DNA of 32,000 nucleotides, from NCBI GenBank assembly GCA_016235425.1, contig JACRLC010000064.1:6242-38241 (forward strand), read 5' to 3'. How positions within the stretch are numbered: position 1 is the stretch's first letter; each line of letters starts with the position of its first letter. Both the position numbers and the translations under genes were made by a program. The stretch comes from Chloroflexota bacterium. Lineage in GTDB: Bacteria; Chloroflexota; Anaerolineae; Anaerolineales; Villigracilaceae. The notes below the pieces were generated by a model that saw only the letters and a program-made list of their open reading frames with translations, did no database searches and was not told the origin of the DNA. Positions 13,940-31,061 of the stretch are shown here, piece after piece.

Positions 13940-13974
13940 GTGGGCCCGGCAGGATTTGAACCTGCGACCAAGCG
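13940..13974. repeat. attL: 35-bp displaced copy of the tRNA-Met 3' end
   Basis: GTGGGCCCGGCAGGATTTGAACCTGCGACCAAGCG is identical to 22899-22933. Confidence 0.8.
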
Positions 13975-14011: not shown

Positions 14012-14344
14012 TTATGGAGGGGATATTTGAACTGGAAGCCATAGTGTTGGGGTTGGAGATGGATTTGTTGTTGAACCTGTGAGAGCATTTATGACTGTTA
14101 CGATTATACAGAAGTATAGGATTATGCCTATGCTTGAAATTATTATATTTGCTGTCATAAAGTGTCCCCAGATTGCGAAGGCCCTGGGGAAAAACTTGTT
14201 GCTAAAAATATTGCTTTTTGGGGGTCTTGTTGTTGATATTCTTTTGCTGAGTTCTAGGTTTTCTTCTTGCAGAGTTTTTATTTGTTGTTCTAGGCTTGTT
14301 AGGTATTCTGTGAGTTCGTTCATGTTTTTGAATTGTGGCGCCAT
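14012..14344 (-). CDS. prophage membrane protein with N-terminal coiled coil
   Basis: aaggga RBS 12 nt after the repressor stop. LTSLEQQIKTLQEENLELSKR is a coiled coil and IIISSIGIILYFCIIVTVINAL is a TM helix. Confidence 0.6.
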   Translation of the reverse strand: MAPQFKNMNELTEYLTSLEQQIKTLQEENLELSKRISTTRPPKSNIFSNKFFPRAFAIWGHFMTANIIISSIGIILYFCIIVTVINALTGSTTNPSPTPTLWLPVQISPP

Positions 14345-14796: not shown

Positions 14797-15048
14797 ATGA
14801 CTACAAACACTACTGTAAACGTTCGCGAACTGGTTACGACCGGCTTTTTCACCGGTGACTGGTCAGAATTTGATAAACATCATCAAGCGTCCATGGATGC
14901 GATTTTTGGCGTCATGCAGTTGAGGCGGGAATTTCGTGTCACTCGCTCGCTTGGTTGTGTTGAAACAGGTCTATTCTTTGCCTTCGATGAGGTGAAGGAT
15001 AGATTTTTATTTGCCTGCACAGGTTTTGTGCAAGGGAGGTTATTGTAA
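14797..15048 (+). CDS. prophage hypothetical protein (83 aa)
   Basis: First ATG downstream of the plus-strand promoter. The stop overlaps the next start (TAATG). Confidence 0.55.
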   Translation: MTTNTTVNVRELVTTGFFTGDWSEFDKHHQASMDAIFGVMQLRREFRVTRSLGCVETGLFFAFDEVKDRFLFACTGFVQGRLL

Positions 15049-15548
15049 TGGCAAAGTTTTCAGGTTGGCTTCATTCAGTCGAGTGGTCAAACTCGCACAC
15101 TAATCCGCCTGCGGAGGCGCCGCGTATTTTGGCAGAAGTATTCACGCTCGAAAAAGACACGCCGATTGAGTTTCAAAACTTTTCTTATTCGCTCGGTGGT
15201 GGTTATTCGAAGACTATACGCTATGTAGCCGAAGCCAGTGGAAAAGAATTGTCAAAAGAAGTGCTTGCCAGTGTTCGCAAGAAACGATTGGTGCGGCGCG
15301 TGAAGGCAAAAGTTCCGATGTTCGCTGATTTTTTCATTGAGCAGGAGATACAGAGAAAAGCAGAATATTATGACGGCATAACCGATGGAGGTTTACAGCA
15401 GGCGAGAGAAGAAGTCTTGGCGCATGAGTTGGAACGCTTCGAGTTTTTCAAAGCGAATGTCAATAAGGTTTTCATCTATGCCGATGAACCAAATGAGTGC
15501 AAAGAAAAAGCGGCGCGCTTACGGGTTGAAATGCTTGCAATCCAGTAG
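15048..15548 (+). CDS. prophage hypothetical protein (166 aa)
   Basis: Translationally coupled to the preceding ORF. Protein-like composition, but no motif recognised. Confidence 0.65.
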   Translation: MAKFSGWLHSVEWSNSHTNPPAEAPRILAEVFTLEKDTPIEFQNFSYSLGGGYSKTIRYVAEASGKELSKEVLASVRKKRLVRRVKAKVPMFADFFIEQEIQRKAEYYDGITDGGLQQAREEVLAHELERFEFFKANVNKVFIYADEPNECKEKAARLRVEMLAIQ

Positions 15549-16299: not shown

Positions 16300-16428
16300 A
16301 TGCCCCCTAATCTTATGACTATTGCCGCCGCGATTGTTGCGCTGAATGATTTGGGTCTCTTGCCTGTAGTTACCGTTGTGGCGACTGTGTTTGTCGCCGC
16401 CTATTTGTACAAGTCCTTCAAACGCTAG
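16300..16428 (+). CDS. mini coat protein candidate 2 (42 aa), paralogue of 16117-16230
   Basis: AAAGGAG RBS. MPPNLMTIAAAIVALNDLGLLPVVTVVATVFVAAYLYKSFKR. A canonical terminator hairpin follows at 16450-16479. Confidence 0.6.
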   Translation: MPPNLMTIAAAIVALNDLGLLPVVTVVATVFVAAYLYKSFKR

Positions 16429-16492: not shown

Positions 16493-16609
16493 ATGTTACA
16501 TGCCGCCATTGAATTACTAAAGGATTTGGGTGTCTGGCAGGCCGTTCAAGCGGTCATTGCCATTGTGTTTACCTGGCTTGCGTATCTGGGTTTTGTCAAT
16601 CGTCGTTGA
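16493..16609 (+). CDS. mini coat-like protein 3 (38 aa)
   Basis: AAGAGGTGAA RBS. MLHAAIELLKDLGVWQAVQAVIAIVFTWLAYLGFVNRR has the same architecture and a diverged sequence. Confidence 0.45.
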   Translation: MLHAAIELLKDLGVWQAVQAVIAIVFTWLAYLGFVNRR

Positions 16610-16619
16610 AAGGCAGAAA

Positions 16620-16814
16620 ATGAATGCACAAGATTATCTATTCCCTGCTTACTTCGTGGTTCTCGTCTTTGTTGCTTCGTTCTCGTCGAAGCTACAGCGG
16701 GTCGCGGTCGTTTCGGCTCTCGGCCTTGTGGCGGTTTATCCGAACCCGGATGCTGGCACTTTCATTTTTCTTTTTATTATTCCTGCCGCTATTCTTGCCA
16801 GTTTCACGGGTTGA
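16620..16814 (+). CDS. small hydrophobic protein (64 aa), uncertain
   Basis: aaagg RBS. Two or three hydrophobic segments. It overlaps the start of the next gene by 65 nt, and the T-rich DNA gives hydrophobic peptides in several frames. Confidence 0.35.
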   Translation: MNAQDYLFPAYFVVLVFVASFSSKLQRVAVVSALGLVAVYPNPDAGTFIFLFIIPAAILASFTG

Positions 16815-17931
16815 GGCACAAACTCCGACTGATACGCCTGCGCCTGTAACGGCTACGGCAACAGGTCATCCGTTATGGCCTTCGATGACGCCTGAACCGA
16901 CGCAAAATTATACCTGTCCTGGGTCTCAGCCGATTGGATGGGGGACTGTAACGCCCGATCCGTATTGGCTTCTCAATTGTCAGGTGTGCGTTACTCCGCA
17001 AGTGCAGGCGACTGAGACGCCCTATCCCGTATCAACTTACATGATCCCGCTGACACAGACGGCGCAAGCTGTCTCTACGCTTACACCTGGTACGGCGACT
17101 GTGACGGTTACTCCTGCCGCCACGTCTATCGCTGGTACGTCTACTCCTGGCAATCCGCTTTTGGTTTGTGATAGTCCTGGCTGTGTCGAGTTGAGTGATA
17201 CATCCATAATGCAACATTTTGCGGGGGAGGTTCTGGTATCTACTCATCCGCAGGTTGTTGTTACGATGAACTATCATCGCACGTCGTCGGCGTGGGCTTC
17301 GCTTTATGTTTACTACTGGGTGACGCATGCGGAATTGCAGAATACGACGGGGTCAGGTAAGAACGTGGCGGATTTTTACAGGACTACTTCTAATGTGAAC
17401 CTTATCAATTATCAGTTCCCTGTCACGGGTATATCGGCAGGGACGACGAGGGATGCTACGTTTGATTATAGTGCGGTCACGTCCAGTACTAACTGGGTGG
17501 GTACTATTTTTACGGGCATACAGTTGGACGGGGCGATAGGTGTTATCTATCGTTACGATATGGACATATATGTTTCTACTGTGCCGATGGATTTTGGCCT
17601 TTTGACTGTTACGCCTACTCCGGTTGTTACCGCTACACCTTATAGCAACTGTGGCGCTGTTGATCCTGATCCAGACACAGGCGGTGATGGTGATTTCGAG
17701 ATACCCGATCCTTGGATTGGTGGCACGACCTGCCCGATTGATTTTGGTGGGGTGGATATTCCGCTGTACGGTATTTTCGGTCTTTCTGATTTTCATCTTC
17801 CTGGTTTGCGGGTTTGCTTTACCGAGATTACGTTTGGCACGCTGGTTTACTATGGTGTTGCCGTGGACGTAGATTATCTTGCTTACATTCTGGCGGCCGC
17901 CGCTCTGATCGGCATGTTTACGAAAGGTTAA
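16750..17931 (+). CDS. g3p-like minor coat / adsorption protein candidate
   Basis: MLALSFFFLLFLPLFLPVSRVEA is a signal peptide. Thr/Pro-rich linkers (TPTDTPAPVTATATG, TLTPGTATVTVTPAATS, TVTPTPVVTATP) separate domains. C-terminal TM anchor YLAYILAAAALIGMF. Confidence 0.55.
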   Translation: MLALSFFFLLFLPLFLPVSRVEAQTPTDTPAPVTATATGHPLWPSMTPEPTQNYTCPGSQPIGWGTVTPDPYWLLNCQVCVTPQVQATETPYPVSTYMIPLTQTAQAVSTLTPGTATVTVTPAATSIAGTSTPGNPLLVCDSPGCVELSDTSIMQHFAGEVLVSTHPQVVVTMNYHRTSSAWASLYVYYWVTHAELQNTTGSGKNVADFYRTTSNVNLINYQFPVTGISAGTTRDATFDYSAVTSSTNWVGTIFTGIQLDGAIGVIYRYDMDIYVSTVPMDFGLLTVTPTPVVTATPYSNCGAVDPDPDTGGDGDFEIPDPWIGGTTCPIDFGGVDIPLYGIFGLSDFHLPGLRVCFTEITFGTLVYYGVAVDVDYLAYILAAAALIGMFTKG

Positions 17932-17935
17932 TGAC

Positions 17936-18046
17936 ATGGGCGATATTGAAATTACGTTCCTTATGAACCCGCATGTACTGACGGCGTTGGGCGTTTGGCT
18001 TTTGGCGACACTGGTCAAGTGGGTTGTTGGCTTTTTTCGAGGCTGA
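17936..18046 (+). CDS. 36-aa single-TM protein (minor coat g6p/g7p/g9p analogue?), not in ORF track
   Basis: Hand translation gives MGDIEITFLMNPHVLTALGVWLLATLVKWVVGFFRG. It lies between the g3p-like and Zot-like genes. Confidence 0.4.
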   Translation: MGDIEITFLMNPHVLTALGVWLLATLVKWVVGFFRG

Positions 18047-18048
18047 TT

Positions 18049-18864
18049 ATGCCGTTCATGGGAGCGCAGGTTGCTTTTGCTACACTGCATGGGTATCGCA
18101 TGGTCTGGATACCTGGCGCATTTGGCAATGGCAAGACGTTGCTTTCGATGGGTATTTACGCACAGTACTTTCAGCCGCGAGGTTACAAGCTTGTTTCGAA
18201 TACTCGTTCTATCTGGACAGAAGAGAGTTTGGACAATGTTCGGATGGATGATAACGGTCATCTAAAGGCGTTTATCCTGATTGACGAGGGCGGGCAGTAC
18301 TTTACGGATGGTGATGATATTCGGGAGTTGTTGCGTAATCCCCGCAAGATGGATTATGTCTTGTGCTTTCCGTCTTTTCATCCGCCGCATCGTTCGGCGC
18401 AAATTTATCAAATGCAACCCACTTGGAGTTTTCGGTCTGCTGGAATTCCGCTGATACATTTCGACTGGTATGTCAAGATTGGTCAGTACAAGACAAAAGG
18501 CGGCTTCAATTGGGTGCTTTTTCAGGAGATGTATGGAACTTATTCGAGTCAAAACCCTGGCGCATCGCCTGCGTCAATTCGTAAGTGGCTTTCGGCACAG
18601 AACAAACTTTTTCGGGAACGCTTCGGCTATGACGACGAAGATGATGTTCTCGACAATCAAGAGGGCGGCTCTGTCGCTGGTGACTGGCTTCGGAAGATGG
18701 AGGGCGAAAAGCTTACAGCCGAAGAAAGACGGGTTCAAGACTTGCTCCAAAGTGCGCTTCGGGCTAATCGAGACAGTGAGGATAATTTGGCACTTATGGA
18801 GGAAGAAACCGCTGAGCTCGAGGCCGTACTTGCTCGAAGTGCAAAGCGGAGGAAACGGGGCTGA
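18049..18864 (+). CDS. Zot / pI-like P-loop morphogenesis ATPase
   Basis: Walker A GAFGNGKT and Walker B FILIDEGG at Zot-family spacing. The position after the g3p/g6p analogues fits. The C-terminus is an acidic coiled coil with no TM helix. Confidence 0.75.
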   Translation: MPFMGAQVAFATLHGYRMVWIPGAFGNGKTLLSMGIYAQYFQPRGYKLVSNTRSIWTEESLDNVRMDDNGHLKAFILIDEGGQYFTDGDDIRELLRNPRKMDYVLCFPSFHPPHRSAQIYQMQPTWSFRSAGIPLIHFDWYVKIGQYKTKGGFNWVLFQEMYGTYSSQNPGASPASIRKWLSAQNKLFRERFGYDDEDDVLDNQEGGSVAGDWLRKMEGEKLTAEERRVQDLLQSALRANRDSEDNLALMEEETAELEAVLARSAKRRKRG

Positions 18865-18874
18865 TGCCGCTGGT

Positions 18875-19528
18875 GTGGTGGCGTTCATTGGCTTTATGAT
18901 GTATATCGCTTTTATGTTGCGCTTGTTCCTGCCGATGATTGGTAACATTCCGTTTTTCAGTTCTGCCGATACCGCAATCGAGCAGGCCGAATTTGTACCT
19001 GCTCCTGCTACGGCTGTTTATGGTGCTGGCTATACGGGTCTCTCTGTTCCTGGGTCTACTCCGGTTTTCAATCTTCCTGTGCCTGCTGTCACGGCTACGG
19101 TTGTGCTTGAGCAACCGACGTACACACCTTATCCGACGTACACGCCTTATCCGGTGGCGACCCAGGATGTCTTGACTATCAAGGTACAGTACTCATATTA
19201 CTGGCCGCCGCTCTTAGGCCCTAACTGTCATCCTGATAATCTGCTTCCCGAGGGCGGCTGTCGGGATACTACATCGAGCGGTTTGCCCTGGTCGCAATAC
19301 CGAGGCAAGGGAGTGGCGATACCGTTACTTTGGACTGAGGCTGTCCCGCTTGGGTCAACGGTTCGGGTTTTGTCTCCCGTCGAAATGATAGGCGACTATC
19401 TTGTTATAGATTACTGCGGTGGTTGCATCAAGTCAGAGTACCCTGATTTGGTTTGGCTGGACTTTCTGGATGATACACAACGGTTGAATTGGTCTGCCGA
19501 TATGACGGTGCAAATCATTCCGCCGTGA
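18875..19528 (+). CDS. membrane-anchored protein with C-terminal 3D / RlpA-like (DPBB) domain
   Basis: The start is uncertain: GTG at 18875 or 18878, or ATG at 18896. N-terminal TM VVAFIGFMMYIAFMLRLFLPMIG, then a PTYTPYPTYTPYP linker. SYYWPP..TSSGLPW..GVAIP..VPLGSTVRV..IGDYLVIDYCGGCI..LDFL resembles 3D-domain muralytic proteins. Confidence 0.5.
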   Translation: MVAFIGFMMYIAFMLRLFLPMIGNIPFFSSADTAIEQAEFVPAPATAVYGAGYTGLSVPGSTPVFNLPVPAVTATVVLEQPTYTPYPTYTPYPVATQDVLTIKVQYSYYWPPLLGPNCHPDNLLPEGGCRDTTSSGLPWSQYRGKGVAIPLLWTEAVPLGSTVRVLSPVEMIGDYLVIDYCGGCIKSEYPDLVWLDFLDDTQRLNWSADMTVQIIPP

Positions 19529-20199
19529 AATATAACGGTAAATGCCTGGGGCTTGAAAATCGCTTGTAGAATGTCTGGCCGTTCCGTGTGCAATGTCTAT
19601 CGGAGCGAGAATTTACCAGACGAGAGCGCATCAGGTAAAACGGAAAATGCCGGTGATACTGTCAATCTTCCAGCGTCGTGAATGCCTGTTTTTGCAATGC
19701 CTGGGTTGCGGTGATGTGGTGAGAAAGGTGCTTTTGTGATCTCGGCTCTCGGCTTGGCTACGCGACCCCTTCTCCGCCTGTGTGTCGGTAGAATGTTTTT
19801 GGTAGGGAATGTCTGTTGTTTTTAGTGCGTATCCGAAGTTCACGCAGTGGTGCGGCGTTGGTATTTTGCGGTGATGTGTTGCCGATAGTGTAAGCGTTGA
19901 TACTGGTTCTTTGCTGGTTTTGTAGTGGCGCATATCTTTTCTATGCGAGCTAACTTAGCGAAGATGTCGGGTTTGTGCGGATGTGCGCCACTGCAAATTT
20001 AGCAAATGATGGAGTCGAGGACGGAACGGAGAACGAGGACTGGAGCGGAGCGAAGCCCGCAGTTCGAGTACCGCCCGCAGTTGCAAAATAACAAGACGCC
20101 CCCACTACTGATAGGGGGGCGGAGTTTTGTAAAGTTATATTTTGGACTTTCTCGGTCTGGTTTTTCGGTCGAGACTTGTCTATACAAAGGATAATATCA
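19529..20199 (+). promoter_or_regulatory. prophage large intergenic region: candidate origin / packaging / regulatory region
   Basis: About 670 nt with no convincing ORF. Same-orientation AATG[CT]CTG[GT] 9-mers, a 13-bp direct repeat, a 12-bp stem inverted repeat, a purine-rich tract and a GC hairpin at 20097-20121, all upstream of rep. Confidence 0.4.
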
Positions 20200-21147
20200 A
20201 TGCGTATACACTGGTTTGCTTTTACTGTTCACGCTGACGAGGCTCATGGTCGGGCTTTGTGGCAACGTCACTTTTTTCATTCGCTCGGTGCGTTGGTTTC
20301 TACTGAGCGTAAGGGCCGAGGGTTCGAGGCTATTGATGTGGCTTTGAACGAGGCGAAGTTCTATTATTCTCCGATCCAGCCCAAGAAAAAAGGTGAGGAT
20401 GATCCTGAGCCGAAAAAGTTGGAGTACTACAATTTCGAGATACCTGGCTCGGCTTGTGATGCTCTTGTTCCCACGGTTTTTCGGGATGTTGTCGGGGAGT
20501 TGAGTGCTTCGGGCTTGCGTTGGTCGGTCAGGCGGATAGATGTTGCCTGGGACGGATTGCCTTTTACGCCTGTCGAATTTGCTCATGCAGTTATTCGGGG
20601 CTATGCTGTGACTTTGGCAAAACGTGAGACATTATCACTGGTTCAATCTCCGTTTGCAGTGCGTGAAGATGGTTCGGGATTTGGCTGTGATACCTGTTAC
20701 ATAGGCAGTAAGGAAAGTCAACGTTTCATCCGTGTTTATAACTCTCGTGGCTTCAATCGTCTTGAAATTGTCTTTCGTGATGAGCGTGCGCATGTGGTTG
20801 CGTTGGATGTTTTTAATTATCGGTATGAATTTTGGGATTTGAAAGCTCGTGAGCATTTGACGCAATATATCCGCTTTACCGAGGAGTTCTCACAGTGGGA
20901 TGATTTTATTCAAGGCGCAAAAAGTGCCAATATAAAAGTCTCGTCTGCTCGCGTGATTTCGCTTGCTCGTGGCGAAAGTTGGATTGAAAAGCAGGTTGCC
21001 GTATTTCTTTCGGTGCATGAGGATGTTTGGGGCAGAAAGCAATCAAGAGACCGAATAGGGAAATTGGTCAATCATGCGCGGGCTACTCGTGACCGTACTC
21101 GTTACTCCGCTGTTCTTCAACTAGCGAATGCTGGTGGGATGTTGTGA
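20200..21147 (+). CDS. rolling-circle replication initiator (Rep_trans family)
   Basis: MRIHWFAFTV (IDWLxFT-like), FEIPGSAC, VRRIDVAWD, TCYIGSKESQRFIRVYNSRG and NRLEIVFRDERA match the Rep_trans motif series as remembered. Confidence 0.8.
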   Translation: MRIHWFAFTVHADEAHGRALWQRHFFHSLGALVSTERKGRGFEAIDVALNEAKFYYSPIQPKKKGEDDPEPKKLEYYNFEIPGSACDALVPTVFRDVVGELSASGLRWSVRRIDVAWDGLPFTPVEFAHAVIRGYAVTLAKRETLSLVQSPFAVREDGSGFGCDTCYIGSKESQRFIRVYNSRGFNRLEIVFRDERAHVVALDVFNYRYEFWDLKAREHLTQYIRFTEEFSQWDDFIQGAKSANIKVSSARVISLARGESWIEKQVAVFLSVHEDVWGRKQSRDRIGKLVNHARATRDRTRYSAVLQLANAGGML

Positions 21148-21535: not shown

Positions 21536-21841
21536 ATGCGTAATAGTTTGGATTATCAAATGATGCGGGTTTTGCCTGAGCAGTTGTTGCATTTGCGGGG
21601 TTGGCATTCGCAGGATGAAGTATCATCTGCTATTGGGGTGCGTCGTGCAACTGTTTCGGACTGGGAGAATGGAAAGTCTCTTCCTTCTCTTGGTGTCTTT
21701 TTCAAGTTGCTTTTTTGGTTGTGTCAAAATAGGGGTCTGTATAGGTCTGCGGTCGAGAATTGTACGGTCGAGTTGACATTGCCAGGCGGTGTACGGTGCA
21801 GGGTACAGTTTATCGAGGAGCGGGGGAATGGTAAATCGTGA
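21536..21841 (+). CDS. HTH (Cro/C1-type) DNA-binding protein
   Basis: SQDEVSSAIGVRRATVSDWENGKSLPSLGVFFKL is an HTH_3 pattern. Confidence 0.6.
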   Translation: MRNSLDYQMMRVLPEQLLHLRGWHSQDEVSSAIGVRRATVSDWENGKSLPSLGVFFKLLFWLCQNRGLYRSAVENCTVELTLPGGVRCRVQFIEERGNGKS

Positions 21842-22856
21842 TAATTGGAAATATGTTCGAGCATATCTAAGGTATCGGCGGGAGGTAGATCGAATTTCCA
21901 AGAGTTCTCAACGCTTAGAGGAAAGTCGTCTTAGACAATTGTTGCAGTGGGCTGATGCTCGGTCATTTTCAAAGGTGATGGGTATTCGCCCTGTGTTTCC
22001 TGAATATCTGGAAAATCAGGGGCTGTCACGGATTTATGTTCTTCATGTTTTGCGCTCGTCTCGTCGCTTTCTTGGATGGCTTAGAAAGCATGAAATTGGA
22101 TTTTCTGTGATTACTGAGGGCTGGTTGGATACGCTAAAACCATCTAGGGGTAATCCTGAGTATAAAGAGCATGAAGCGGTGACGTTGGAGGAAATACGGG
22201 CTATGGCATGTGCGTCTGTTGAAACGATAGGTGAAAGGCGTATTAGGGCTTCCGTGGTCTTTTGGTTTTTATCGGGTATTCGTGTTGGTGCATTTGTTAC
22301 TTTACCGCTGTCTGCTGTGGATTTAGAAAACCGGACAGTCAAGCAATGGCCTAAGCTGGGAGTAAAGACAAAATTTGGGAAACACGCCACTACGTTTTTA
22401 TTAGATATGCCTGATTTGTTGGAAGTAGTGCAGGAATGGGATAGAGAAGTGCGGGAAGCTGGTGCAAGATATTGGTTTGCTCATGTTGACCCTGAAACGG
22501 GAAAAATTCTTCCAGGAGGCGATGAGGCGGGAAAACATCGGGATGTGAGGGCGAGAAAGGATTTGCAAGCGTGGCTTGGTCGGGTTGGTTTGCTTTATCA
22601 TTCTCCTCATAAATTTAGGCATGGTCACGCCACTTATGCTTTGAAAGGTGCGAAAGATGTACCTGCGCTAAAAGCGATAAGTCAAAATTTGATGCACAAG
22701 AATTTGAGCGTTACGGATGGGGTTTATGCTATTTTGTCGGATTTTGACGTGAAAGAACAAATCACGGAGTTAGGCAAAACTATAGCAGGTAGCCAAAATA
22801 GGGATGAATTGATTGAACTTTTGAAGCAGGTTTTGAAGCAGAATTCCCCCAAATAA
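21828..22856 (+). CDS. int: tyrosine integrase
   Basis: HKFRHGHATYAL is the HxxR box and LMHKNLSVTDGVY carries the catalytic Tyr. N-terminal SAM-like domain. It abuts the tRNA-Met attR. Confidence 0.85.
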   Translation: MVNRDNWKYVRAYLRYRREVDRISKSSQRLEESRLRQLLQWADARSFSKVMGIRPVFPEYLENQGLSRIYVLHVLRSSRRFLGWLRKHEIGFSVITEGWLDTLKPSRGNPEYKEHEAVTLEEIRAMACASVETIGERRIRASVVFWFLSGIRVGAFVTLPLSAVDLENRTVKQWPKLGVKTKFGKHATTFLLDMPDLLEVVQEWDREVREAGARYWFAHVDPETGKILPGGDEAGKHRDVRARKDLQAWLGRVGLLYHSPHKFRHGHATYALKGAKDVPALKAISQNLMHKNLSVTDGVYAILSDFDVKEQITELGKTIAGSQNRDELIELLKQVLKQNSPK

Positions 22857-22898: not shown

Positions 22899-22933
22899 GT
22901 GGGCCCGGCAGGATTTGAACCTGCGACCAAGCG
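22899..22933. repeat. attR: 35-bp repeat inside intact tRNA-Met
   Basis: Identical to 13940-13974. Confidence 0.8.
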
Positions 22934-22972
22934 ATTATGAGTCGCCTGCGCTAACCGCTGCGCCACGGGCCC
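22900..22972 (-). tRNA. tRNA-Met (anticodon CAT; could alternatively be a lysidine-modified tRNA-Ile2)
   Basis: Hand-folded cloverleaf: acceptor GGGCCCG/CGGGCCC, anticodon loop CTCATAA, T-loop TTCAAAT. No encoded CCA. Confidence 0.85.
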
Positions 22973-30812: not shown

Positions 30813-30833
30813 ACGCAAATAATTGACGGAAGA

Positions 30834-31061
30834 CTCATCCAGAGAGGCTGAGGGACCGACCCTTTGACGCCTCGGCAACCGGTGTTAGTCGTCTAGTCTG
30901 ATAGTCAACTAGTCTTGTAGTCAGATAGCCATGAGACTACGAGACCATGCGGCCAAAAGACCACAAGACTTATTACGGTGCCAATTTCGGCAGACAGATG
31001 TCTGGGAGATGAGAGATGACTTTGTATGAAATGTCGCCTCTCATTGCGAGAGGCGATTTTG
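30834..31061 (+). promoter_or_regulatory. SAM-I (S-box) riboswitch with intrinsic terminator expression platform
   Basis: P1 is CTCATC/GATGAG. Core strings AGAGAGGCTGAGGGA, GCAACC, GGTGCCAATTTCGGCAGA and GAGATGAGAG are present. Terminator tcgcctctc-attgc-gagaggcga-tttt at 31034-31060. The antiterminator would pair gatgagag with ctctcat. Confidence 0.8.

Follow-up and report, generated by a model that had tools for sequence, protein, structure and literature searches.

A conserved, overlapping gene pair for a pI-like ATPase and a membrane-anchored 3D-like barrel protein in an inovirus-like prophage: a proposed assembly and egress module

INTRODUCTION

Many inoviruses (filamentous phages) of diderm hosts which lack a secretin gene borrow the secretin of their host. 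The pI protein of inoviruses has been placed in the FtsK-HerA superfamily, its transmembrane domain being C-terminal as a rule and N-terminal in approximately 30% of species (Roux et al. 2019; PMC6813254). For monoderm hosts, too, inovirus families have been recognised (PMC6813254), the interaction of inoviruses with Gram-positive walls being stated to be unknown or unexplored (PMC10061712), and the IME1 elements of Dehalococcoides have been put forward as filamentous or budding viruses of Chloroflexota, 21-28 kb in size and proposed to contain double-stranded DNA (dsDNA; bioRxiv 10.64898/2026.09.15.751708). To date, studies of filamentous phages that must be extruded through a thick wall in the absence of an outer membrane are limited to a handful. 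Here, we describe a prophage of approximately 9 kb, inovirus-like (i.e., filamentous-phage-like) and integrated at a tRNA-Met gene, which lies in a 32,000-nucleotide (nt) stretch of contig JACRLC010000064.1 (positions 6,242 to 38,241; this whole stretch is hereafter termed the window, and coordinates refer to it), and specifically the pair of overlapping open reading frames (ORFs) that it carries, which encode a soluble ATPase and a membrane-anchored protein, here termed the partner.

It is proposed, at a rough probability of 0.55, that these two ORFs represent a conserved, translationally linked assembly/egress module of the prophage, in which the outer domain of the partner would cleave or loosen the cell wall. 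The evidence which carries this proposal is the strict pairing and overlap of the two genes, the topology of the partner and the fold and conserved residues of its outer domain, each of which is considered below together with the alternative explanations upon which it bears.

RESULTS AND DISCUSSION

The ATPase and partner genes form a conserved, overlapping pair

Homologues of the ATPase (27 close relatives of 241-314 amino acids [aa] from a word-indexed search, extended by a profile search to 64 clusters of 197-314 aa) and of the partner (36 proteins of 194-344 aa from a word-indexed search, and approximately 197 representative domain clusters from an exhaustive profile search) were collected, and 15 distinct loci were found to harbor both genes, with ATPase identities to the window of 27% to 99%. 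At each of these 15 loci, the partner gene is located directly 3' of the ATPase gene, in its +1 frame and overlapping it, which answers a check set in a preliminary description of the locus, namely whether the two-ORF arrangement is retained in homologous elements. Because this arrangement recurs at 15 distinct loci and the C-terminal domain of the partner displays 24 invariant positions across 37 sequences, the pair lies far beyond chance. No promoter or terminator signal beyond chance was detected between the two genes, and no ATPase-partner fusion was present among the 64 ATPase clusters and the approximately 197 partner clusters.

The partner ORF had initially been described as starting approximately 10 nt downstream of the ATPase gene, a placement which is not upheld, GTG 18875 being no more than the first canonical start codon past the ATPase stop. 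A start some 35-90 nt inside the ATPase gene is favoured, the candidate codons being GTG 18776, CTG 18809 and TTG 18830, since synonymous variation is suppressed across this region, start codons are conserved within it and motifs are retained in the partner frame. Synonymous variation was expressed as the fraction of conserved codons with a synonymous change among six ATPase genes of 59-86% identity. This fraction was 0.53-0.59 up to codon 225 (45-codon bins) and 0.43-0.65 up to codon 230 (10-codon bins), and it fell to 0.30, 0.27, 0.24, and 0.12 in the successive 10-codon bins of codons 231-270 (18739-18858). Five of six close loci retain an NTG 86 nt before the ATPase stop codon (position 18776 in the window, where it is GTG), the ATPase residue at this point being variable (S, I, L, or V). 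Relatives furthermore carry an ATG, preceded by GGAGG, at 53 nt before that stop (L023:3788, L024:3764, L026:3770, L028:3779, and L008:1897), at the position which is CTG 18809 in the window lineage and likewise CTG in loci L005-L007; in this lineage, therefore, the start would have to be GTG 18776, TTG 18830, or a non-canonical CTG. TTG 18830 has GAGG upstream, and its equivalent was chosen by the gene caller in the 99%-identical locus L005.

The peptide encoded in the partner frame just before the membrane helix is kept in distant relatives despite differing sequence in the ATPase frame. Two groups of loci can be told apart by the N-terminal motif of the partner, which is RPYL-x-E...GG-x-G in one and YPERTFKGRDRVSLVPRW in the other (RPYL or YPERTFKGRDR), this second motif preceding the helix in the group-2 relatives. 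The ATPase tail and the partner N-terminus are the same DNA read in two frames, and they co-vary between the two groups.

The ATPase is soluble and distantly pI-like

The ATPase ORF extends from ATG 18049, with GAGG 7 nt upstream, to TGA 18862-18864, and its product is composed of a core (residues 1-190), an acidic helical tail, and a basic end, RSAKRRKRG. Its Walker A motif is GAFGNGKT and its Walker B motif is ILIDEGG, the corresponding patterns GxxGxGKT and hhhDEGG being invariant among its relatives. The AlphaFold2 (AF2) model (mean predicted local distance difference test [pLDDT] score of 85.6) displays a P-loop core followed by helices, including a long helix formed by residues 224-270. 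The fold is of the additional-strand catalytic glutamate (ASCE)/RecA type, with structural matches to RecA/RadA, the packaging NTPase B204 of STIV2, and P4 of phi8.

The preliminary description had held that the ATPase is devoid of a transmembrane helix, and this is borne out: the highest 19-residue Kyte-Doolittle mean is 0.87, versus 2.27 for the helix of the partner. Maxima were compared in this manner as a cut-off of 1.6 proved too strict, the known helix of M13 pI reaching 1.31. A helix is absent from 61 of 64 ATPase relatives as well, and the transmembrane domain that is expected of pI is not found within the polypeptide of the window ATPase. Such a helix-less pI-like ATPase is not unique to the window and is present in public inovirus genomes, no convincing membrane helix being apparent in either Orf8 of Propionibacterium phage B5 or ORF14 of Ralstonia phage NP-2014. 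Several deposited Zot/pI proteins are short, at 223-308 aa (L017, B5 Orf8; L020, Ralstonia phage NP-2014 ORF14; L021; and L022). ORF15 of Ralstonia phage NP-2014 was considered as a precedent for a separate pXI-like protein and was rejected, as it has no helix.

The relationship to pI was assessed at the profile level. While the window ATPase itself matched no entry of PHROGs, the PHROG annotated as protein I of M13 was weakly matched by 14 of 45 relatives (best E 0.0018), and that annotated as Zot-like toxin was weakly matched by 6 of the 45 (best E 0.0012). When the 45 relatives were compared by hhalign with an alignment of seven pI/Zot proteins (those of M13, IKe, fs2, a Ralstonia phage, two gut inoviruses, and B5), a match at 95.4% probability (E 1.7e-8, 97 columns) was returned, to be read in the knowledge that P-loop profiles cross-match easily; it begins at Walker A and extends past Walker B as far as the RK-x-D motif. 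The protein is thus best described as a putative distant pI-like P-loop ATPase and not as a demonstrable member of the Zot family.

The partner has a predicted pXI-like topology

The partner extends approximately 660 nt past the ATPase stop, and the transmembrane anchor, linker, and C-terminal motifs which had been quoted for it in the preliminary description are all present in frame. With the start at 18776, a count from the sequence gives net charges of +3 for the segment preceding the helix and -3 for the segment following it, and on the basis of this asymmetry the protein is predicted to adopt an N-in/C-out orientation, as an external domain requires. The elements of a pXI-type topology can accordingly all be recognized in its sequence: a short, basic N-terminal segment in the cytoplasm, a single helix, and a C-terminal domain on the outside. 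The linker contains PTYTPYPTYTPYP, an 18-nt tandem repeat (PTYTPY) at 19115-19150, and both its length and its sequence vary across partner homologues, the motif PTxTPYPT being kept.

Four relatives are found in named genomes, namely, two "Chloroflexi bacterium" metagenome-assembled genomes (MAGs), an Anaerolineales MAG, and a Herpetosiphon, all of which belong to Chloroflexota. On account of these relatives, the host of the prophage is probably a Chloroflexota bacterium without an outer membrane, Chloroflexota being increasingly considered monoderm (bioRxiv 10.1101/2025.08.19.671072). It had been claimed at the outset that the element encodes no secretin, and no major ORF of the element matched a secretin family; since the relatives reside in Chloroflexota, a phylum considered monoderm, this absence is unremarkable. 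The accompanying suggestion that the partner stands where a secretin would sit is not sustained, given that the phylum of these relatives is considered monoderm and that its topology fits pI/pXI. At 217-250 aa, with one helix and a double-psi beta-barrel (DPBB) domain, the partner does not resemble a secretin (pIV/GspD). It is better compared with the membrane and periplasmic part of pI/pXI than with pIV because of its basic cytoplasmic N-terminus, single helix, and outer domain, and because its gene closely overlaps that of the ATPase.

The outer domain represents a divergent 3D/MltA/YuiC-like barrel

The AF2 model of the partner attains pLDDT values of 88-98 for residues 100-217 (in the numbering that starts at 18875, which also applies to the residues named below). 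In a Foldseek comparison with the PDB, the top hits were all DPBB proteins, comprising bacterial expansins, kiwellin, loosenin, MltA (2pi8 and 7esj), the N-domains of NSF/Cdc48, and a diffocin baseplate protein, while a comparison with BFVD yielded a "cell wall-binding protein" of a Bacillus phage (E 2.3e-4) and a phage protein annotated as "3D containing protein" (E 3.4e-3). The DPBB/3D-like fold that had been suggested for this domain from its motifs is hence corroborated by the AF2 model and by these DPBB, MltA, and expansin matches.

Profile searches connect the domain to the 3D family in steps. A profile of the window subfamily finds, in a library of 1.8 billion proteins, relatives which carry the classic DRGGAI loop (E ~1e-10 to 2e-5), and in the alignment of the wider family, 7 of 28 members match Pfam 3D (PF06725; best E 7e-4). 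YuiC is the top PDB sequence match for the partner domain family (E 0.3), and phrog_6631, a viral group of unknown function, is matched by 25 of the 28 wider-family members. A match of the partner to Tenascin-R in the PDB sequence search (E 0.15) was judged to be due to chance. In two relatives, the domain is fused to a Peptidase_M23 domain (E 5e-13 and 7e-16). These fusions, P0236 and P0244 (L029:226-1782), are 518-519 aa in length and possess an N-terminal M23 domain, membrane helices, and a C-terminal 3D-like domain; at L029, no ATPase gene lies upstream of the fusion. Based on the structural matches, the DRGGAI relatives which weakly match Pfam 3D, and the M23 fusions, the barrel is a divergent 3D/MltA/YuiC-like branch.

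In MltA and YuiC, D308 and D162, respectively, are catalytic, and D297 and D151 bind the -2 sugar (PMC4499186). In the partner, D196 (within the x-D-F-L motif) and D179 (within D-x-x-G-G-x-I) are both invariant, in the alignment of 37 sequences as well as in that of 28, and as judged by motif order and a partial alignment with YuiC, D196 would correspond to MltA D308/YuiC D162 and D179 to D297/D151. In the wider family, Cys-Pro (A-C-P) stands where the first of the three signature aspartates would be. With the other two aspartates kept, the barrel may still be catalytic.

A proposed mechanism and the evidence for and against it

Drawing on the arrangement and overlap of the genes, on the conservation of the pair, and on the predicted folds, the retained aspartates, and the association with wall enzymes, a mechanism can be envisaged in which the soluble ATPase would drive the assembly of virions on the cytoplasmic side of the membrane, where it would be docked by the short basic cytoplasmic segment of the partner (RIIWHLWRKKPLSSRPYLLE). 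The partner would span the membrane once as a bitopic N-in/C-out protein, and its flexible Pro/Thr linker of 70-100 residues would bring the 3D-like barrel to the peptidoglycan, which the barrel would cleave or loosen locally at the site of extrusion, allowing the filament to pass the wall. The two subunits would thereby jointly fill the role of the single pI of the Ff phages (with its nested pXI), the outer domain acting on the wall and not on a secretin. From these data we infer a physical interaction between ATPase and partner, an enzymatic activity, and a role in egress rather than in entry, and the remodelling of the wall during egress is considered plausible.

Several of our observations weigh against this proposal. 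On the side of the ATPase, the window protein had no match to Pfam Zot (PF05707) at E <= 0.1, and among 45 relatives only 5 matched Zot (best E 0.023), whereas 43 weakly matched the generic P-loop family nSTAND3; moreover, as P-loop profiles cross-match easily, the hhalign result does not constitute specific proof of a pI. Of the "Zot" label attached to the protein in the preliminary description, consequently, the family assignment is weak and the pI-like role is retained, by virtue of the profile-profile match to pI and of gene order only. On the side of the barrel, the window domain found no match in Pfam 3D (PF06725) up to E 10, nor in DPBB_1 or PHROGs, the PDB sequence search with the subfamily profile was likewise negative, and the Foldseek matches in the PDB, with probabilities of up to 0.99, had E values of at least 0.014 and TM-scores of at most 0.5. 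In the window subfamily, Pro150 occupies the position of the first 3D aspartate (A-I/V-P versus A-V-D in YuiC), and DYCGGCI stands in place of the DRGGAI loop, a change which could signify a loss of catalysis. Finally, the sole ground upon which egress is preferred over entry is the genetic coupling of the partner to the ATPase.

The divergence of the barrel is accommodated by an alternative which we regard as unlikely, albeit worthy of serious attention, according to which the partner is a membrane subunit whose non-catalytic barrel binds peptidoglycan, the S-layer, or a virion protein, serving as an anchor or scaffold in the way that the periplasmic domain of pI/pXI contacts pIV. Pro150 in place of one signature aspartate and two new invariant cysteines in the DYCGGCI loop are in keeping with such a function, as are the non-hydrolytic DPBB proteins among the best structural matches (expansins, kiwellin, loosenin, and the NSF/Cdc48 N-domains) and the "cell wall-binding protein" annotation of the top BFVD match. 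It is opposed, however, by the invariance of the aspartates which correspond to the catalytic and -2-sugar-binding residues (both in the 37 and in the 28 sequences) and by the relatives in which the domain is joined to a genuine M23 wall hydrolase, while a loosening activity of the expansin type would itself still amount to wall remodelling.

A second alternative concerns the direction of transit. The partner could be a virion-associated or entry protein, i.e., a minor coat protein inserted into the membrane, with a wall-cutting domain that breaches the peptidoglycan when a new host is infected, in the manner of the 3D lysins of tailed phages. To our knowledge, all coat proteins of filamentous phages are inserted into the membrane before assembly, and the BFVD matches attest to 3D domains in tailed-phage proteins; the match of 25 of the 28 wider-family members to the viral phrog_6631 is likewise compatible with a virion protein. 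The partner gene is nevertheless located outside the block of coat genes, and its overlap with the ATPase gene in 15 of 15 loci argues for coupled expression. In addition, its N-terminal cytoplasmic motif co-varies with the ATPase tail, and the N-in/C-out topology with a long basic N-terminal segment resembles pXI and not pIII or pVI, so that a role in entry appears improbable, somewhat more so than the non-catalytic barrel.

In its fullest form, the proposal of a wall-active egress module becomes more tentative. The module may constitute a secretin-independent exit route for the filamentous phages of walled monoderms, in which the assembly motor is coupled to a 3D-like domain that opens the wall at the extrusion site, and in which the gene overlap, possibly together with a minor frameshifted fusion product, sets the ratio of the subunits. 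In the Ff phages, pI and pXI are balanced.

The open +1 frame and the question of a frameshifted product

In the window, the partner frame opens at 18455, at a distance of 135 codons ahead of the ATPase stop, and the +1 frame is devoid of stop codons for 76-194 codons upstream of the ATPase stop in all 15 loci (e.g., 18455-18864 in the window and L023:3290-3840). The open frame of approximately 400 nt to which the preliminary description had drawn attention is therefore real, although most of it is without coding constraint. A long overlapping gene occupying the 135-codon open frame was rejected, as synonymous variation is normal up to codon 230. In synonymous-codon shuffles with the last 40 codons fixed, the P value of the open run was 0.02-0.8 per locus, and stops in the +1 frame were slightly rarer than in the shuffles (combined P 0.015 for six lineages, independence being assumed). 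The depletion of stop codons is weak, and synonymous constraint is confined to the last ~40 codons.

The possibility had been raised that a +1 frameshift produces a fusion which recreates a complete pI-like protein. In the form considered here, a programmed +1 (or -2) frameshift near the 3' end of the ATPase gene would yield some ATPase-helix-barrel fusion as the equivalent of pI, the separate partner assuming the role of pXI. The position of the partner frame, invariably +1 and free of stops for 76-194 codons ahead of the ATPase stop, would suit such an event, as would the slight shortage of +1-frame stops (combined P 0.015) and a synonymous suppression that begins approximately 30 nt upstream of the first conserved start codon. 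The overlap alone, however, locks the frame relation between the genes, and the per-locus P values of 0.02-0.8 make the open frame no more than slightly unusual; furthermore, conserved start codons with Shine-Dalgarno-like motifs account for the data. The 64 ATPase clusters are only 197-314 aa in length, and the partner relatives of more than 500 aa are M23 fusions only. Long hits were inspected as possible ATPase-partner fusions and discarded, the 518-519-aa pair being the M23 fusions and the rest representing gene calls extended into the open +1 frame. The aligned junctions contain no conserved +1 slippery site, and a candidate, CTT-CGG-G at ~18745, was dismissed since the codon before the slip site is CTT, CTT, GTT, and TTA in four close loci and hence is not kept. 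A frameshifted fusion is thus neither needed nor supported, and its probability is deemed very low. Lower still, to the point of being negligible, is that of a single pI-like gene having been split by a sequencing frameshift (an artefact) or by pseudogenisation (decay). The resemblance of the concatenated ATPase, helix, and outer domain to canonical pI is all that can be cited for such an origin, which is contradicted by the two-ORF, +1 arrangement in 15 independent assemblies (ATPase identity of 27%-99%), by the intactness of both ORFs with purifying selection visible in both frames, and by the lack of any fused homologue, a sequencing frameshift being ruled out on these grounds.

The prophage which carries the module

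The element is identified as a tRNA-Met-integrated, inovirus-like prophage because it is bounded by attachment (att) repeats at tRNA-Met and encodes a Rep_trans initiator, an integrase, a repressor, and coat-like and pIII-like proteins in an Ff-like order (Table 1). Between the 35-nt repeat copies, the guanine-plus-cytosine (GC) content drops from approximately 0.55 to 0.39-0.51, and the GC skew is strongly positive. The only element ORFs on the minus strand are a pair at the left end, 14012-14344 and the HTH_3 repressor-like gene, all others being encoded by the plus strand, and a repressor gene is present at the equivalent position in L001, L005, L023, L024, and L026. The long ORFs of the element are limited to those of the pIII-like protein, the ATPase, the partner, Rep, and the integrase, and an ORF of 128 aa is situated between the Rep_trans and integrase genes. 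Among the ten element ORFs scanned, clear PHROGs matches were obtained solely for the repressor, the integrase, and a 166-aa ORF at 15048-15548, which matches phrog_27524 (unknown function; E 2e-13).

TABLE 1 Features of the prophage and of the ATPase-partner module, in window coordinates
Feature	Position	Strand	Basis
attL, 35-nt direct repeat copying the tRNA-Met 3' end	13940..13974	.	Exact repeat of 22899-22933
HTH_3 repressor-like gene, divergent from the phage operon	14357..14713	-	Pfam HTH_3 E 1.8e-10
Three small single-helix coat-like genes, 37-42 aa	16117-16230, 16300-16428, 16493-16609	+	One hydrophobic helix each
pIII-like protein of 435 aa, N-terminal hydrophobic signal and C-terminal anchor	16624..17931	+	ORF, hydropathy, M13 gene III position
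Single-helix ORF of 36 aa at the gene VI position, ending 2 nt 5' of the ATPase start	17936..18046	+	ORF, hydropathy
Soluble pI-like P-loop ATPase, 271 aa	18049..18864	+	Walker motifs, AF2, hhalign
Overlap zone, predicted partner 5' end in the +1 frame of the ATPase gene	18776..18864	+	Synonymous suppression, conserved start codons
Partner, "pXI-like" membrane subunit; 250 aa from 18776, 232 aa from 18830	18776..19528	+	Homologues, gene position
Single transmembrane helix of the partner, VVAFIGFMMYIAFMLRLFLPMIG	18875..18943	+	Hydropathy maximum 2.27; AF2 helix pLDDT >90
Low-confidence Pro/Thr/Ala-rich linker of the partner	18944..19177	+	pLDDT 46-75
3D/MltA/YuiC-like double-psi beta-barrel of the partner; D179 and D196 invariant, four invariant Cys	19178..19525	+	AF2, Foldseek, relatives
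Imperfect inverted repeat of 27 nt (81% complementary, 43-nt spacer)	19910-19936 / 19980-20006	.	650-nt non-coding gap, partner gene to rep
Rolling-circle replication initiator Rep_trans	20176..21147	+	Pfam PF02486 E 2.3e-11
Tyrosine integrase	21789..22856	+	Pfam Phage_integrase E 3.6e-7; phrog_1 E 2.5e-16
tRNA-Met (CAT), 3' 35 nt = attR 22899-22933	22899..22972	-	ARAGORN, Rfam, repeat

The gene order of the element mirrors that of M13, the ATPase gene following the gene III-like and gene VI-like genes, and the same order was observed in L001, L002, L005, L023, L024, and L026. The first two coat-like genes are tandem paralogues, constituting a 113-nt direct repeat of 80% identity, and both end in the basic tail YKSFKR, which makes them a candidate for a duplicated major coat gene. 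The pIII-like protein had no family match in either Pfam or PHROGs, and the 36-aa ORF which follows it is also called as a gene in L005 and L026. The inverted repeat downstream of the partner gene is a candidate replication origin or packaging hairpin.

In other assemblies, a prophage with a 99%-identical ATPase (L005-L007, on ENA contigs) occupies a different chromosomal site, flanked by PIN/AFOR genes on one side and a glycosyltransferase gene on the other, which suggests that the element has been mobile recently. The initiator of L024, L026, and L028 is of the REP_ORF2-G2P type, versus Rep_trans in the window, L005, and L023, and the gene following the partner has a faint D12 methyltransferase match in L024 and is a 219-aa ORF in L001. 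The replication module is swapped among close relatives, the ATPase-partner pair remaining fixed. In the host DNA downstream of the prophage, an S-adenosylmethionine (SAM) riboswitch (S box) is present at 30832-31015 on the plus strand (72.4 bits versus a gathering score of 44.4).

Significance and comparison with known systems

Taken singly, the components are of kinds already known: inoviruses, pI-like ATPases, and 3D domains are all familiar, as is the attachment of a wall enzyme to an envelope machine. No report of a wall-active partner of pI was found in the literature. A domain resembling those of wall enzymes that is conserved and gene-overlapped with an assembly ATPase provides a hypothesis on wall passage which is testable by mutation. 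The module furthermore shows that the function of pI is divisible between two polypeptides, and the performance of inovirus detectors which require a transmembrane domain in pI may be affected for lineages of this kind. No similarity to either window protein was detected by tblastn in 50,697 phage records, and no relative was found in an IMG/VR scan with the partner alignment; the partner offers a second marker gene for a lineage that is missed by current tools (IMG/VR, phage records, and the Zot model).

With IME1 of Dehalococcoides, the element shares the host phylum, a pI-like ATPase gene followed by genes for membrane proteins, and an integrated/episomal lifestyle. It differs in its size of 9 kb and its rolling-circle Rep, and the main text of the IME1 paper names no peptidoglycan-related protein. 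The inoviruses of monoderm hosts (Propionibacterium phage B5/Paulinoviridae, Clostridium CAK1, and that of Enterocloster) resemble it in their small genomes, their Rep, their small coat genes, and their pI-like ATPase, and in having no secretin, and the pI-like Orf8 of B5 is also without a membrane helix. Phage B5, in contrast, has no gene between its pI-like gene and rep, and a wall-active partner has not been described for these phages.

Specialised wall enzymes are a recurrent accessory of envelope-spanning machines: transglycosylases of the VirB1 and EtgA types serve type IV and type III secretion, respectively, and the wall hydrolase LytF reportedly aids extrusion of the competence pilus in the Gram-positive Streptococcus sanguinis (PMC12424861). 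The partner would share with VirB1, EtgA, and LytF the principle of a wall-active enzyme that is encoded with, or recruited to, such a machine, whereas the folds employed by those enzymes are others (lysozyme-like/soluble lytic transglycosylase [SLT] and CHAP/NlpC). We know of no specialised lytic enzyme whose gene overlaps that of a motor ATPase, nor of any described for a filamentous phage.

With regard to the outer domain itself, MltA of Escherichia coli and the YuiC and Sps proteins of Bacillus subtilis (PF06725) have the double-psi beta-barrel fold in common with the partner. The motif order of the 3D transglycosylases (T-x-SG, A-V-x-P...P-L-G-S/T, D-x-G-G-x-I, and x-D-F/L) is also shared, and the second and third aspartates are kept. 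The partner departs from these enzymes in the proline at the position of the first aspartate, in its DYCGGCI loop and four invariant cysteines, and in falling below detection by PF06725; it also possesses an N-terminal strand with the motif SYYWPP...NC, and it is tethered by an N-terminal signal-anchor helix, being neither a lipoprotein nor a secreted protein.

The closest parallel is provided by pI/pXI of the Ff phages. The ATPase gene follows pIII-like and small membrane-protein genes, the window ATPase family aligns with pI by profile from Walker A to RK-x-D, and the partner is arranged like pXI, its single helix separating a short basic segment in the cytoplasm from a C-terminal domain on the outside, both products being derived in each system from overlapping coding sequence. 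The window ATPase differs from Ff pI in lacking a Pfam Zot match. In the Ff phages, the overlap consists of one ORF with an in-frame internal start, whereas in the present prophage separate polypeptides are predicted to be encoded with a +1 overlap of ~35-90 nt; and where the Ff proteins present a domain of ~75 aa which contacts pIV, the partner presents a 3D-like barrel of 120 aa on a Pro/Thr linker of 70-100 aa.

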